Source of the DNA: Minisyncoccota bacterium
GTDB lineage: Bacteria; Patescibacteriota; Minisyncoccia; Phycocordibacterales; UBA9973
Assembly (NCBI GenBank): GCA_041659205.1
Contig: JBAZYS010000005.1
Span: forward strand, 1-57,719
Direction: 5' to 3'
DNA: 57,719 bases
Shown: piece by piece, positions 14,166 through 39,005 of the stretch
Layout: each line of letters begins with the position of its first letter
Position numbering within the stretch: the stretch's first letter is position 1
Position numbers and translations under genes: made by a program
The notes under the pieces: model-generated
The model's database searches: none
Told to the model about the DNA's origin: nothing
Seen by the model: the letters and a program-made list of their open reading frames with translations, nothing else

Positions 14166-14236
14166 AGCGGGGTAGAGAAGAGGTATCTCGTAAGGCTCAT
14201 AACCTTAAGACTCACGTTCGATTCGTGACCCCGCAA
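14166..14236 (+). tRNA. tRNA-fMet (CAT), initiator type; CCA not encoded
   Basis: Cloverleaf; 1x72 mismatch (A-A), A11:U24, anticodon loop CTCATAA. Confidence 0.88.
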
Positions 14237-14282
14237 CTAGTCGGCAAGTGACATGCCTTATGTCTAATTGTCGAAGATAATG

Positions 14283-14311
14283 TATAATGTCGGCGTAGCT
14301 GTTTTGGTAGA
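14283..14311 (+). repeat. Duplicated 5' fragment of tRNA-Met with CAG-to-GTT change
   Basis: TATAATGTCGGCGTAGCT-GTT-TTGGTAGA versus TATAATGTCGGCGTAGCT-CAG-TTGGTAGA at 14335-14363. Confidence 0.85.
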
Positions 14312-14340
14312 TAACGGTTAAGGTACAACTTTGTTATAAT

Positions 14341-14413
14341 GTCGGCGTAGCTCAGTTGGTAGAGCGGAGGACTCATAAGCCTCAGGTCACAGGTTCAATC
14401 CCTGTCGCCGACA
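14341..14413 (+). tRNA. tRNA-Met elongator or tRNA-Ile2 (CAT)
   Basis: Cloverleaf GTCGGCG/CGCCGAC, anticodon CAT, T-loop TTCAATC; A31-G39 mismatch. Confidence 0.88.
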
Positions 14414-14434
14414 CCCTCAGAAAGAGGAAAATTT

Positions 14435-14506
14435 GCGGCTGTAGCTCAACGGTAGAGCACCCGCCTGTCACGTGGGAGGCCGTGGGGTCAGCACCCATCA
14501 GCCGCG
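14435..14506 (+). tRNA. tRNA-Asp (GTC)
   Basis: GCGGCTG/CAGCCGC acceptor, anticodon loop CTGTCAC, discriminator G; atypical T-loop GTCAGCA. Confidence 0.88.
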
Positions 14507-19569: not shown

Positions 19570-19642
19570 GCCGTTGTAGCTCAGTTGGTAGAGCACGATA
19601 TTGGTAATATCGAGGTCATCGGTTCAATCCCGATCAACGGCT
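19570..19642 (+). tRNA. tRNA-Thr (GGT)
   Basis: GCCGTTG/CAACGGC acceptor; anticodon arm CGATA-TTGGTAA-TATCG. Confidence 0.93.
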
Positions 19643-19657
19643 CCCGAAATAAAATAT

Positions 19658-19730
19658 GCCGCTGTAGCTCAGGTAGTAGAGCAACGAATTCGTAATTCGT
19701 GGGTCGGATGTGCAAGTCATCCCAGCGGCT
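19658..19730 (+). tRNA. tRNA-Thr (CGT)
   Basis: GCCGCTG/CAGCGGC acceptor; ACGAA-TTCGTAA-TTCGT; atypical T-loop TGCAAGT. Confidence 0.88.
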
Positions 19731-24003: not shown

Positions 24004-24074
24004 TTGCGAGACTTGGACTCGAACCAAGATAACCTCCTCCAGAGGGAGGTGTCCTACCATTAGACGATCTCGCA
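24004..24074 (-). tRNA. tRNA-Gln (CTG)
   Basis: TGCGAGA/TCTCGCA acceptor; CCTCC-CTCTGGA-GGAGG; T-loop TTCGAGT. Confidence 0.93.
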
Positions 24075-32710: not shown

Positions 32711-33097
32711 ATGAATAATAAAAAAATATTTATCTCAATAATTGGTCTTTTGATTTTAGGTACTATTGCTACCGTGCTCCTTCAGTCAAATAGCACACCT
32801 CCAGGCCCTGGGAAGTATGACACTTTTGCAACTTGTCTAAAGGATAAAGGGGCTGTATTTTATGGAGCTTATTGGTGTCCACATTGCCAATCTCAAAAGA
32901 AACTTTTTGGTTCTTCTGCTAAATTATTACCCTATGTTGAATGTTCTACTGCTGATGCCTCTGCTCAAACGCAAGTCTGTAAAGATAAAAAAATTGAAGG
33001 CTACCCTACTTGGGAATTTGCTGATGGGACACGCATGAATGGGGAAATCCCTCTACAGCAATTAGCTGACAAAACTTCTTGTGTTTTGCCTCAATAA
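32711..33097 (+). CDS. Membrane-anchored thioredoxin-like protein (VKOR-associated type)
   Basis: FYGAYWCPHC, LPYVEC...C, IEGYPTW motifs. Confidence 0.85.
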   Translation: MNNKKIFISIIGLLILGTIATVLLQSNSTPPGPGKYDTFATCLKDKGAVFYGAYWCPHCQSQKKLFGSSAKLLPYVECSTADASAQTQVCKDKKIEGYPTWEFADGTRMNGEIPLQQLADKTSCVLPQ

Positions 33098-33177: not shown

Positions 33178-33732
33178 ATGAATTTGGAATCCGTTCATTA
33201 TTTAAATGTCTTTCTTGGATTAGGGGCTATTCTCCTTCAGATTTTTTCTTTTGTCGCATTATTTTTACTTTTCTTTCGACGGAAAGAAAATATAAAAAAT
33301 GCATACCTTGATTTCATTGATAAACATTTTTTAGTATTAGCCTTTTTAATTTCCTTTTTTTCTTCAATTTTTCCTCTAGTTTATTCTGAAATTATCCATT
33401 TTCTTCCATGTTACCTGTGCTGGTGGCAGAGAATTTTTATGTTTCCAACGTTTTTCTTGTTCGGAACAGCTCTCTGGGACAAGGATAGGAAGGTTGTAAG
33501 ATATGCTGCATCTTTACTTTCTCTCGGTTTGCTCATTTCTTTATACCAAAATTTCTTTTATTATTTTGGAGAGAGTGCAAATATACCTTGTGATGCATCC
33601 GGTATATCATGCTATAAACATTTAGTCTCTGAATTTGGTGGGTATATTTCAATACCAATGCTTGCTTTAACTGCCTTTTTTGCTCTTTTGACATTGCTTG
33701 CCGTCGCTCATTTTTATAGAAAAGAGAATTAG
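33178..33732 (+). CDS. Disulfide bond formation protein, DsbB/BdbC family
   Basis: PCYLCWWQRIFM and a second Cys pair (PC...SC); four TMs. Confidence 0.9.
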   Translation: MNLESVHYLNVFLGLGAILLQIFSFVALFLLFFRRKENIKNAYLDFIDKHFLVLAFLISFFSSIFPLVYSEIIHFLPCYLCWWQRIFMFPTFFLFGTALWDKDRKVVRYAASLLSLGLLISLYQNFFYYFGESANIPCDASGISCYKHLVSEFGGYISIPMLALTAFFALLTLLAVAHFYRKEN

Positions 33733-36115: not shown

Positions 36116-37870
36116 TTATAAATTAAAAATATTTGTCAATAATCTTACGAACCAGCTTTCCTGAGAAGGCTCCACTTTTGTGGTGGGCGGAGGTATTTTT
36201 TCTGTATTTATTGGTGTAGTTATAATTATAGGTGTGTTTTTTTGTTTTTTTACAAATTTTTTCTGGACTTTAGTTATTTCTTGAATTTTAGGTTTTTCAA
36301 ATTTTTGCATTATTTGATTCCAAGTTTTACTAGATAGTATTGAGGAGACATAAGCAGTTTCCCAAATTTTAGTATTTATGTTCTCGTTCTTTATTCCACC
36401 ATCTATATCTTGGATTGTAGCGAGATAATCAAGGGGAGTATTGTCGCCCCTTTTCCAATCTTCAGGCTTTTCACCAAGGGCCGTAATACCTTCTAAAGCC
36501 CAGGCAGTAGAAGAAGCATTGCCCCAACCACCATTTTCTTTCTGTTTTTCTCTTAAGAAGTTTTTAGCTTTTTCTAAACTTTCCCCTATCAGAGGGGTAG
36601 GGGAAAAAGGGGAAAGGGCTTCGATGGCTGCACCCGTCATATCTACTGATTCATCAAAAGATCCGTTTTCCTTCTGACGGCTTAGAATAAAAGAAATGTC
36701 ATCGTTTATCATTTTTTCGTCTTGTGTATATCCTGAACTTTGTAAAACAATTAGAGCAAAAATATCATCATTGTCTTCATTTGCATCACCAAATTGTTTT
36801 CCATCAAAGCTTGTTATTATTTTTTCAATATAGTTTTCATTGTTTGTATTGTAGGGATTTAATCCGAGCGAAAGGAGAGCCATCGCATGTCTTTCGTTGT
36901 CAGTCAAAGACATGCCTTCTGTTTTATTCTCTACTGCATATCTAACCAATTTTATTGTTTGGTCTTGGTAATTACTGGAAGCAAAAGCGAGAGTTGCCCA
37001 ATCTGTATAAATATCCTGACCGAAAGAGCCGTTTTTTTCTTGCTGGGTGATTAAAAAATCAAAAGCTTTTTTTAGGTCAAATTTTGTTTTTTCAACAGTA
37101 ATAGGAATGATTTCTTGAGAAATTGGCGTACTTGATGGTTCATTAATAGGAATACTTCCACTCCCTCCTCTTGTTTCTGCTGGGGGGGTAGAGATTTGAA
37201 TATTTACATTGTTAGATGGCACACGTAATGTTTTACTGCCGATAGCATTTAATGAACCAGCTGTATTTAAAACTATAAAGCAAGTTCCGTCAGTGGCTGT
37301 GGTGCAAGTTTGAGTTCCAAGTGTAATTGTGGCTTCAGAGGATGGAGTCCAAAGCATATTATAATTTGCATCAAAGGTGCTTTCTTCTTCTGCAGTAAAT
37401 GTTATGGTGTCACCGATTATTCCAGAACTTTTTGAGGCTGAAATACGTAGTGGATAAGAATTGTAAGTTAAGAGAAGTTCTTCTCCGCTAGAAAGAGAGT
37501 GCTGATTAAGTCCAGTTCCTCCCAAGCTTAGATTATTAAACCAACTCCAAAATTTTGAAAAATCAGGAGTAGTTGTATATCCACTAAGTTCGTTCAACCA
37601 TCCACTTGGAGCATAATTCCAAGTCCAAGTATTTGATAATGCAGGTACGACTTGCTCTATGGCGCATTTACCATTTATGGTGATAGGTGCATCAGGGGCT
37701 GGTGATTCGGCACAAGCTGTAACTGTCTCTGGCCCATTAAATATAACAGTATCATCTGCATAAATTTTTAGAATTATGTTTACAGAATTATCCGCTAAAA
37801 CAATTTGTCGTGTAGAGAAAAACAATATAACTAATAAAACTACTTTTGAAATCTTTTTTATATTTTTCAT
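36116..37870 (-). CDS. Secreted protein: DUF4430-like beta domain + Ig-like domain + prenyltransferase-type alpha/alpha toroid (transcobalamin-like)
   Basis: Signal peptide; FWSWFNN...G......LSSGEELLLTY; four QW-like repeats (FLITQQEKNGSF, ILSRQKENGSF, FLREKQKENGGW, YLATIQDIDGG). Confidence 0.78.
   Translation of the reverse strand: MKNIKKISKVVLLVILFFSTRQIVLADNSVNIILKIYADDTVIFNGPETVTACAESPAPDAPITINGKCAIEQVVPALSNTWTWNYAPSGWLNELSGYTTTPDFSKFWSWFNNLSLGGTGLNQHSLSSGEELLLTYNSYPLRISASKSSGIIGDTITFTAEEESTFDANYNMLWTPSSEATITLGTQTCTTATDGTCFIVLNTAGSLNAIGSKTLRVPSNNVNIQISTPPAETRGGSGSIPINEPSSTPISQEIIPITVEKTKFDLKKAFDFLITQQEKNGSFGQDIYTDWATLAFASSNYQDQTIKLVRYAVENKTEGMSLTDNERHAMALLSLGLNPYNTNNENYIEKIITSFDGKQFGDANEDNDDIFALIVLQSSGYTQDEKMINDDISFILSRQKENGSFDESVDMTGAAIEALSPFSPTPLIGESLEKAKNFLREKQKENGGWGNASSTAWALEGITALGEKPEDWKRGDNTPLDYLATIQDIDGGIKNENINTKIWETAYVSSILSSKTWNQIMQKFEKPKIQEITKVQKKFVKKQKNTPIIITTPINTEKIPPPTTKVEPSQESWFVRLLTNIFNL
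36583..36603. repeat. Degenerate 21-bp palindrome copy inside the CDS
   Basis: CCCCTATCAGAGGGGTAGGGG (18/21) with TTT/AAA flanks like the 47792 copy. Confidence 0.6.
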
Positions 37871-37885
37871 TTCTTTTAAAATTAA

Positions 37886-38341
37886 TTAATAATTAAACTT
37901 TTCATACTTCCAAGACACAACGTCACCCCCTTTAATTTTATAATCTGAAACACCAATTTGAGCCTTAATTCCATTTACATAATAAATCCAGTTTTTTTCT
38001 CCGTTTCCTTTTATTCCATTAATGGAAACTATAAATTTCCCAATTCCTGCATAGTTTTTTTCTGTAAAGTTTATTTTTCCTTCGCTCCGAAGCTTATCCA
38101 TAAAATCGTAAACATTTGTTATTCCTAGGACTGTGCCTTCATAGCGTTTATCATTTATCTCTAAAATAGTTTTTATATTTGTGGATTGAGTATTTTCTGT
38201 ATTTGAAGCATTATTAAACACTTTTTCTTGAGGGAGTATTATTTTTTGTTTTTCAACCCCGTAGAAGAATAGAAAAGATACACTTAAAAAAGCCAAAAGA
38301 GTTATGATTATTATTTTGTTTTTTGTTGTTAATTTTGACAC
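37886..38341 (-). CDS. Membrane-anchored DUF4430 (transcobalamin-like C-terminal domain) protein; GTG start after the attenuator
   Basis: GKFIVSING...NWIYYVNGIKAQIGVSDYKIKGGDVVSWKY motif; N-terminal TM. Confidence 0.85.
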   Translation of the reverse strand: MSKLTTKNKIIIITLLAFLSVSFLFFYGVEKQKIILPQEKVFNNASNTENTQSTNIKTILEINDKRYEGTVLGITNVYDFMDKLRSEGKINFTEKNYAGIGKFIVSINGIKGNGEKNWIYYVNGIKAQIGVSDYKIKGGDVVSWKYEKFNY

Positions 38342-38369
38342 AAAAAAATTCTGTTTAGAGCAGAATTTT
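38342..38369 (-). terminator. Riboswitch-controlled attenuator
   Basis: Minus strand AAAATTCTG-CTCTAAA-CAGAATTTT plus T-tract; its CTGCTC is complementary to GAGCAG at 38395-38400. Confidence 0.8.
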
Positions 38370-38388
38370 GGGGCCCTCAAAAAAGAGG

Positions 38389-38506
38389 GAGATCCTGCTC
38401 GGGATTAATGAAATGATTGGTGTTCGGACTTGTTCCCTCCACCTGTTGGTGTTCGGGACTTACCGTAGCGGCACTGTACTGGAATCTAACCAGTTTCCCC
38501 AATCAA
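38389..38506 (-). ncRNA. Cobalamin riboswitch, compact variant
   Basis: Minus strand TGATTGG-GGAAACTGG-TTAGATT-CCAGT-ACAGTGCCGCTACGGTAA...AAGTCCGAACA-CCAATCA...GAGCAGGATCTC. Confidence 0.88.
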
Positions 38507-38534
38507 TTCTTATAATTTTCAAATGAACTCTCTT

Positions 38535-38562
38535 AGTATATACTTAGATTACATTATGTCAA
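38535..38562 (-). promoter_or_regulatory. Promoter of the riboswitch operon
   Basis: TTGACA-16 bp-TATACT on the minus strand. Confidence 0.6.
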
Positions 38563-39005
38563 AGAAAGGTGTGGAAAAGAAAATAAACAAGATAATGATC
38601 TTTGGGACCTTTGATGGTCTTCATAAAGGACACATTAATTTGTTTAAACAAGCAAAAAACTTCATTAAAAATTCATTTTTAATTGTTTCAATAGCAAGAG
38701 ATAAAAATGTTCTTAGAATAAAGGGAGTGTATCCGGATAAAGACGAGCGGGAGAGAATGATTTTAGTAAAAAAATGTAAATTAATTGATCAAGTAGTTCT
38801 TTCGGGTGTAAAAAATCATCTCCCACATATCGTAAAAGTACATCCGGATATTATTGCCCTTGGTTATGATCAAAAAGCTTATGTTAAAAACTTGAAAAAG
38901 GATTTAAAAAATAAGGGTATTTTGGTTAAAATTATTAGGTTGAAACCATATAAAGAAAAAACATATAAAAATCACTTGCTTAAAAAAAGAATATTATTAC
39001 AATAA
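38556..39005 (+). CDS. Cytidylyltransferase-family protein, probable FAD synthase (RibL type)
   Basis: FGTFDGLHKGH, IARD, PDIIALGYDQ motifs. Confidence 0.8.
   Translation: MSKKGVEKKINKIMIFGTFDGLHKGHINLFKQAKNFIKNSFLIVSIARDKNVLRIKGVYPDKDERERMILVKKCKLIDQVVLSGVKNHLPHIVKVHPDIIALGYDQKAYVKNLKKDLKNKGILVKIIRLKPYKEKTYKNHLLKKRILLQ

Follow-up and report, generated by a model that had tools for sequence, protein, structure and literature searches.

A compact cobalamin riboswitch that probably controls a putative B12-capture operon in a Minisyncoccota bacterium

Does the untranslated leader of a two-gene operon in a Minisyncoccota bacterium respond to vitamin B12, and what would such a response mean for the genes that follow it? 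The leader and the operon reside on the minus strand of contig JBAZYS010000005.1, which was analyzed as a single stretch of 57,719 nt (the window). An earlier reading of this DNA (the original prediction) had proposed a compact cobalamin riboswitch joined to an attenuator. The best explanation for the locus, and one regarded as probably correct, is a functional cobalamin riboswitch of class II architecture, which is proposed to switch transcription off by termination and leads a two-gene operon with a plausible role in the capture of B12.

Family membership and architecture of the aptamer

When the whole window was searched on both strands against 4227 Rfam families, the sole riboswitch match was to the Cobalamin family, RF00174 (38398-38548, minus strand; 38.3 bits versus a gathering score of 31.5; E = 3.3e-6). 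The first 20 nt of this match (38548-38529) are promoter rather than RNA, as indicated by the sigma-70-like promoter located there, and the P1 and P2 helices drawn in the first Rfam alignment were rejected on the same grounds. The predicted transcript alone (38390-38529) still scores 35.6 bits, and in this repeated search P2 is deleted. Thus, the Infernal search that had been suggested as a check upholds the proposed family assignment, and the motifs originally listed are all present on the minus strand where they had been placed (coordinates verified by script). The compactness ascribed to the RNA is also borne out by the transcript-only alignment, in which the 23 positions of P2 in the model are reduced to 1 nt and the 51 positions of its P6 extension to 10 nt. 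The fold z-score is -3.45.

The aptamer is organized as a four-way junction of P3 to P6 with a short P6 hairpin, and has neither a P2 module nor a J1/3 loop. Its UGAUUGG/CCAAUCA stem is part of a longer, continuous P1-P3 helix of 11 bp, interrupted by one U.U mismatch, in which GAAUUGAUUGG (38499-38509; all leader and operon features are on the minus strand unless stated otherwise) pairs with CCAAUCAUUUC (38410-38420), position 38509 facing 38410. The core junction J3/4 follows as GGAAA (38494-38498), which fits the GGGAA of the Rfam consensus and is nearly invariant, and leads into P4 (ACUGG/CCAGU), whose T-loop-like L4, UUAGAUU, conforms to the consensus GGUGcaAauCC (38478-38494). P5 consists of the two pairs AG/CU closing the loop L5, UGCCG (38473-38469), and the segment 38467-38475 reads AGUGCCGCU and is followed by ACGGUAAG. 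P6 (38425-38465) comprises a proximal CGG/CCG helix and a short distal hairpin of 25 nt (38458-38434), with no P7-P11 extension. The B12 box, or J6/3 core, AAGUCCGAACA (38421-38431), corresponds to the stretch AGCCAGGAGACC in the Rfam consensus, and among relatives its A-G-x-C-C-G is invariant and the neighbouring positions are at least 90% conserved. J3/4, the L4 T-loop and the B12 box all align to the consensus in columns that are invariant or nearly so. The linker downstream of P1, J1/13 (AUUAA, 38405-38409), varies among relatives in both sequence and length, and in some of them it holds an inserted hairpin.

The comparison rests on 80 related genomic loci, 72 of which have enough upstream DNA to contain the leader. 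Among the first 17 loci, 12 display a match to a family of the cobalamin clan upstream of the operon, with RF00174 as the best model in seven, RF01482 in two and RF01689 in three; the other five score below all clan thresholds, among them L012 for lack of upstream DNA. A custom covariance model, R1, built from 42 leaders, finds one copy per locus in 72 of the 80 loci, always upstream of the same operon, and the eight loci without a match are all too short on that side. Exactly one copy is found in the window (38391-38514, 123 bits).

The helices of the aptamer are supported by covariation. In an alignment of 74 sequences, 96.3% of cells are paired and 22 of the 28 pairs change on both sides, values that are reached in none of 500 shuffles, and pairing falls to 22-55% when partner columns are slid. 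An alignment made with MAFFT only, which was not fitted to the structure, yields the same covariation picture. In P1/P3, changes on both sides are seen at all 11 pairs (9 of 11 in the MAFFT alignment), and in P4, which is paired in every sequence (100%), at three of five. One of the two P5 pairs covaries, A-U being replaced by U-A in 7 sequences while the G-C pair is invariant; this exchange fixes L5 as a five-base loop, UGCCG, which is itself unchanged in all 74 sequences. The distal part of P6 covaries at all four pairs tested, so that compensatory changes back the four-way junction from P3 to P6. A chance match, or a decayed and non-functional relic, might be suspected from an Rfam score just ~7 bits above gathering. 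This reading is scarcely credible, being already contradicted by the comparative data: each of 72 loci has a single copy of the RNA, four of its helices show compensatory changes, and its promoter and terminator are conserved.

Two kinds of insertion were observed in related leaders. About a dozen relatives, although not the window RNA, carry an extra stem-loop inside the L4 T-loop, with the form GGUGACC-[hairpin]-GGGAUUCC (L007, L015, L039, L041, L051, L052, L058, L065, L067, L072 and L076). A palindromic element, GTCCCGTACT...AGTACTGGGA(T), occupies two different sites, namely the J1/13 linker (L021, L022, L024 and L034) and the interval between the U-run and the start codon (L018, L026, L039, L051, L066 and L080); it resembles a small mobile hairpin or one of the repetitive extragenic palindromic type.

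The class of the aptamer follows from its layout. In class I (Cbl-I), a P2 module is combined with a large P6 extension; class IIa (Cbl-IIa) is marked by a bulged J1/3, and class IIb (Cbl-IIb), which binds adenosylcobalamin (AdoCbl), by a J1/3 that is either paired or mismatched, together with a short P6 hairpin (PMC7367189). The window RNA has neither the L2A-P2-L2B module nor the large P6 extension (P7-P11) of Cbl-I, and it also lacks the J1/3 internal loop of env8-type Cbl-IIa, a T-loop that contacts J6/3. Instead, J1/3 is mismatched and the P6 hairpin is short, as in Cbl-IIb; the U.U that the window RNA has at the P1-P3 junction is replaced by G.U or A-U in most relatives. The continuous P1-P3 helix with its single mismatch and the short P6 thus place the aptamer in class II, with a IIb-like layout.

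It had been argued that short class II switches prefer methyl- or hydroxocobalamin to AdoCbl, but this is too general, as class II spans the full range from methylcobalamin-selective to AdoCbl-selective members, with J1/3 as a key determinant that is absent in some of them (PMC6158498). Ligand preference is not readable from aptamer length. A Cbl-IIa-type switch tuned to methyl- or hydroxocobalamin and discriminating against AdoCbl would accord with the short P6, with the missing P2 module and with the three close relatives whose best model is RF01689, the family to which env8 belongs. Such a switch is nonetheless judged distinctly unlikely, since the J1/3 T-loop that defines Cbl-IIa is absent from the window RNA, where P1 and P3 are continuous (PMC6158498), and since a paired J1/3 with a short P6 is the arrangement of the AdoCbl-binding Cbl-IIb (PMC7367189). 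In addition, the AdoCbl model RF01482 gives the highest score for two relatives, and the enzyme encoded beside the operon in relatives, a class II ribonucleotide reductase (RNR), is AdoCbl-dependent. The accompanying suggestion that specific corrinoids are sensed fares no better, given that, of 38 riboswitches assayed in vivo, not one was limited in its response to a single corrinoid (PMC9600662).

The L13 box and the expression platform

Directly 3′ of P1 is a small hairpin, P13/L13 (UCC-CGAGCA-GGA, 38393-38404), whose loop L13 (38401-38396) is proposed, on the basis of complementarity, to be the kissing partner of L5. The 9-mer that spans this box, CCGAGCAGG, is exact in all 72 leader-bearing loci and has a single occurrence in the window, where 0.08 would be expected. 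Both L5 and the L13 box are invariant in the alignment of relatives, while their flanks vary. A kissing segment had been anticipated here, and complementarity to L5 does exist, but the register first put forward, GAGCAGGA with CCGC, has no contiguous pairing and was discarded. The best register sets 5′-CG(A)GCA-3′ (38401-38396) against 5′-UGCCG-3′ (38473-38469), so that all five L5 bases pair if A38399 bulges. In cobalamin riboswitches, the kissing loop always has at least one unpaired nucleotide and requires that L13 be presented on a stem-loop (PMC5028336), a rule that the predicted arrangement with a bulged A38399 fits. Two other candidate partners for L5, GGUGG in P6 and GGGCC after the spacer hairpin, were dismissed, neither being conserved in relatives by eye. 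Apparent changes within P13 in the 74-sequence alignment were also discounted, as they come from rows in which the model had aligned to an inserted hairpin.

The box serves the platform as well. Its 3′ portion belongs to the antiterminator 5′ strand GAGCAGGAU (38392-38400), which overlaps L13 and the 3′ arm of P13 and pairs with AUUCUGCUC (38358-38366), a segment of the terminator 5′ arm and loop, to give 9 bp in the minimum free energy (MFE) structure. Between these strands is a spacer hairpin, CCCUC-U6-GAGGG (38374-38389), which is present in both alternative folds and is replaced in relatives by a hairpin of another sequence. The alternative to the antiterminator is an intrinsic-terminator-like hairpin, AAAAUUCUG-CUCUAAA-CAGAAUUUU, followed by more U (38342-38369); in the window it has a predicted stability of -5.0 kcal/mol and precedes a run of 7 U. 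The AUUCUGC of the terminator 5′ arm is present in most loci, and an equivalent hairpin with a U-run of 7-8 U is found in about 70 of 75 leaders. When the platforms were folded alone, the antiterminator was the MFE structure in 42 of 69 leaders, whereas blocking of the box allowed the terminator to form in 68 of 69, which implies that ligand turns the switch off. The two-state platform with this logic, as it had been read from the window, is hence conserved over about 70 loci.

The box is invariant even in loci where the terminator arm differs (L004, L019, L055, L061, L062, L069, L072 and L079), and antiterminator pairing is thus not the sole constraint upon it. A scan of metagenomes for the ordered pattern of L5, B12 box and L13 box recovered at least 120 loci, many of them from the Hainich groundwater wells. 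In several leaders of higher G+C content from outside the Paceibacterota, the box is the ribosome-binding site (RBS) and lies 5-9 nt before the AUG, as in CCCGAGCAGGAGGAUUUUAUG; the same layout is known from class II switches with the RBS in L13 (PMC5028336). Both the invariance in such loci and this layout speak for the role of the box as L13.

These elements can be assembled into a mechanism. With a corrinoid bound in the junction, L5 (UGCCG) would kiss L13 (CG[A]GCA) on the P13 hairpin (UCC/GGA) and GAGCAGGAU would be locked up; the AUUCUGC arm so freed could pair with CAGAAU to form the terminator hairpin ahead of the U-run, and transcription would halt short of the GTG start codon (38341). 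In the ligand-free state, GAGCAGGAU and AUUCUGCUC would pair around the spacer hairpin as an antiterminator, allowing read-through into the operon. Judged by these pairings, the switch most likely stops transcription of the operon when B12 is plentiful. The opposite direction, in which ligand promotes read-through, has a precedent in the activating corrinoid riboswitches reported in PMC10327014. It is very improbable here, both because P13/L13 holds the antiterminator 5′ strand, so that stabilization of P13 and of the kissing interaction can only free the terminator arm, and because repression by its own product is what one would expect of an uptake operon.

Several observations weigh against switching by ligand-induced termination. 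As L5, L13 and P13 never vary, the kissing loop is beyond the reach of a covariation test, and, with one skip allowed, full pairing to the five L5 bases could be achieved by ~3% of random 6-mers; moreover, P13 is just 3-4 bp long. The window terminator is weaker than those of relatives, with ~8-9 bp, 2 G-C pairs and -5.0 kcal/mol, and it was not called by a consensus scan, on account of its few G-C pairs. In the window, the terminator state lies 5.5 kcal/mol above the antiterminator, a gap that would require strong stabilization by ligand together with the kissing interaction, or else kinetic control. Finally, the start codon abuts the U-run, so that the hairpin might act on translation.

This last point leads to a further alternative, in which the hairpin and U-run mainly block translation by hiding the ribosome-loading region, alone or together with termination. 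The start codon is at most 12 nt past the hairpin in 43 of 69 leaders, AGGA resides in the 3′ arm of the hairpin in 29 of 69, and riboswitches of the same type control the RBS directly in other lineages. However, a stem with 7-8 U right behind it is the hallmark of intrinsic terminators and persists in about 70 leaders, the 3′ arm in the window (CAGAAU) has no Shine-Dalgarno-like core, and seven loci retain the hairpin although ~80 nt separate the U-run from the start codon. A mainly translational block is therefore considered unlikely but not negligible; an added translational effect is possible in relatives and, given the CAGAAU arm, less likely in the window. Termination remains the preferred reading of the platform.

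The operon and its surroundings

The first gene of the operon (37886-38341) starts with the GTG at 38341 and encodes a 151-aa protein with an N-terminal transmembrane helix and a DUF4430 domain (Pfam PF14478, E = 7.7e-13). In its AlphaFold2 model (predicted local distance difference test score, pLDDT, 82), the product has the fold of a transcobalamin beta domain: the 15 best-ranked fold matches from the PDB each represent the beta domain of transcobalamin, intrinsic factor or haptocorrin. In TCN proteins, DUF4430 forms the C-terminal domain (PMC4350170). Sequence and profile searches of the PDB with the DUF4430 protein returned nothing, and the relation to transcobalamin is seen by fold comparison only.

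The 584-aa product of the second gene (36116-37870) carries a signal peptide, two beta domains and an alpha/alpha toroid and ends in a C-terminal helix (AlphaFold2 pLDDT 82); Pfam recognizes a SQHop_cyclase_C repeat in it. Fold matches of this protein to transcobalamin and haptocorrin rank 29-45, behind the thioester-containing domains (TEDs) of complement proteins and terpene cyclases. The toroid fold is shared with these latter two groups, and a role of the second protein in B12 binding is putative. In Pfam, neither window protein matches PF01122; some homologues of the second protein give faint matches to PF01122, and some carry PF01122 and/or a fused PF14478 (DUF4430). The N-terminal beta domain of the second protein (residues about 29-137) weakly matches the beta domains of haptocorrin, intrinsic factor and 3u7z in profile searches (E = 0.03-0.18), and by this resemblance the operon may hold two DUF4430-type domains. 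The second protein has hundreds of homologues, and every named one derives from a metagenome-assembled genome of Patescibacteria, Paceibacterota or Nomurabacteria. The host had been taken for a member of the Candidate Phyla Radiation (CPR), which agrees with the fact that the named homologues of both proteins and the titled loci are nearly all assigned to these same groups. The membrane-anchored DUF4430 protein and the secreted or anchored toroid protein most plausibly capture external B12 jointly.

The genomic neighbourhood of relatives lends support to this role, although it does not amount to proof. Twelve of the 80 loci (L003-L006, L008, L009, L019, L044, L055, L061, L062 and L079) encode a class II RNR directly upstream of the operon, as does L081 (4414-7393), whose copy best matches the AdoCbl-dependent RTPR model, and in seven of these loci (eight with L081) a gene resembling the S-component of an energy-coupling factor (ECF) transporter is situated between the RNR and the riboswitch. 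Neither gene is in the window. This arrangement supports both a B12-capture role for the operon and a need for AdoCbl in the lineage. No B12-dependent enzyme or cob gene was found among the subset of window proteins scanned.

Upstream of the aptamer is a sigma-70-like promoter found by consensus scan, with a -35 hexamer TTGACA (38557-38562) that is kept in most related loci and a -10 hexamer TATACT (38535-38540) that is also seen in related loci; 11 of 12 consensus positions match, and the spacer is 16 nt. From spacing alone, transcription is predicted to start near 38528. The A/U-rich 5′ leader, GUUCAUUUGAAAAUUAUAA (38510-38528), is supported by sequence conservation across loci, and it is in this segment that the Rfam model deletes its P2 positions. 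The GUUC at the predicted start (GTTC, 38525-38528) is kept in nearly all related leaders, and no pairing partner for it is conserved across these loci. A P2-like hairpin formed from this GUUC and a GAA was rejected, since the pairing is inconsistent across loci and L009 has the GUUC without the GAA.

The promoter also shows features that concern its other side. About 8 nt upstream of the -35 hexamer in most related loci (about 60) is T(T/A)TCCACA, the DnaA-box consensus, of which the window version is TTTTCCACA (38570-38578). The composite of this motif and the promoter occurs once in the window, while the 9-mer alone is not enriched there (20 matches versus 18.5 expected); the motif overlaps the first codons of a divergent gene, and coding constraint may explain its conservation. 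The -10 region, AGTATATACT (38544-38535), is palindromic and yields TATACT on either strand, and the divergent gene, which is cytidylyltransferase-like, starts with an ATG (38556) that overlaps the -35 hexamer, TTGACAT being the reverse complement of ATGTCAA. This suggests overlapping back-to-back promoters at 38535-38562 and a nearly leaderless divergent mRNA.

Further from the operon, a thioredoxin-like CPHC protein (32711-33097) and a DsbB-family protein (33178-33732), both on the plus strand, are encoded 2.4-3.4 kb beyond the toroid gene, and the pair is near the operon in 40-49 related loci; its presence suggests that the toroid protein, which is exported and contains cysteines, acquires disulfide bonds. 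Elsewhere in the window are a partial 5S rRNA at 1-85, with which the window opens at the end of an rRNA operon, and six tRNA genes (14166-14506, 19570-19730 and 24004-24074).

Riboswitches with the same L5 and L13 box also precede other genes. In metagenome contigs of higher G+C content, they are found ahead of a family of 440-560-aa proteins (L107, L116, L133, L146, L169, L176 and L190, with L090, L098, L099, L104, L110, L158 and L191 as probable further loci) that lack a signal peptide, start with a sequence like MA(V/A)AAE and carry a CxxC...CxxC zinc ribbon at the C-terminus. This family has no match in Pfam, in NCBIfam or among PDB sequences, and by its association with the switch it is a candidate B12-regulated enzyme. 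In L153 and L173, a leader of the Paceibacterota type is followed by a first open reading frame that encodes a long, very acidic and repetitive protein beginning MDTFDTSEE rather than a DUF4430 protein.

Known counterparts and biological meaning

The RNA belongs to a well-known class that is recognized by Rfam and whose architecture has been described, whereas its cargo is largely undescribed. With RF00174 (clan CL00101) it shares the J3/4 GGGAA, the P4/L4 T-loop, P5/L5, the base of P6 and the B12 box; the P2 hairpin and P6 extension of that model are missing here, and the score is modest. Its nearest likeness is to the Cbl-IIb switch of the Enterococcus faecalis type, as to the continuous P1-P3 with a single mismatch and the short P6 hairpin (PMC7367189), and as to the L5-L13 kissing-loop design (PMC6158498), which is predicted in the window RNA too. 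The window platform differs in being a terminator and antiterminator, and a preference for AdoCbl is only putative. The hydroxocobalamin-binding env8 Cbl-IIa (PDB 4FRN and 4FRG) is likewise compact and uses L5-L13 kissing with one or more unpaired purines in an L13 carried on a stem-loop (PMC5028336). Unlike the window RNA, env8 has a J1/3 T-loop and controls translation through an RBS in L13; in the window, L13/P13 is instead an antiterminator strand. For Bacillus subtilis yvrC/btuF, repression by transcription termination has been modelled in which L5-L13 stabilizes P13, followed by P14 and a poly-U tract (PMC7367189), but yvrC retains P2 as an arm and has an additional linker hairpin at P8-P9, both of which are absent from the window RNA.

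For the proteins, the counterparts are transcobalamin, intrinsic factor and haptocorrin (PF01122, with a beta domain equivalent to DUF4430), which resemble the first gene product in beta fold and the second in its toroid. In contrast to these carriers, the function would be split over two polypeptides, and the second has beta domains before its toroid. The literature searched contained nothing specific on cobalamin riboswitches in CPR bacteria or on bacterial DUF4430 proteins as binders of B12, which is no proof of novelty. It is conceivable, although somewhat short of an even chance, that a split transcobalamin on the cell surface is the main corrinoid-capture device of the Paceibacterota and feeds the AdoCbl-dependent class II RNR; its parts, under this equally tentative view, would be a membrane-anchored beta-domain protein and a protein of beta, Ig-like and alpha/alpha-toroid domains.

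The riboswitch itself is standard and founds no new class; what gives it value is that it marks two uncharacterized proteins as B12-related, one with a DUF4430 domain and the other labelled by annotators as a "prenyltransferase/squalene-cyclase repeat" protein, in an operon conserved across the Paceibacterota. The short leader, the clean promoter and the readable two-state platform also make it a candidate natural element for ligand-controlled expression in Patescibacteria, for which inducible systems are wanted (PMC11665869). The link between the operon and an AdoCbl-dependent RNR offers a testable hypothesis of how B12-auxotrophic CPR bacteria obtain the cofactor for making DNA precursors. 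If the split-transcobalamin view is true, the fold of the animal B12 carriers would have a bacterial counterpart in pieces, and B12 piracy would be a regulated and testable trait of these ultrasmall episymbionts.

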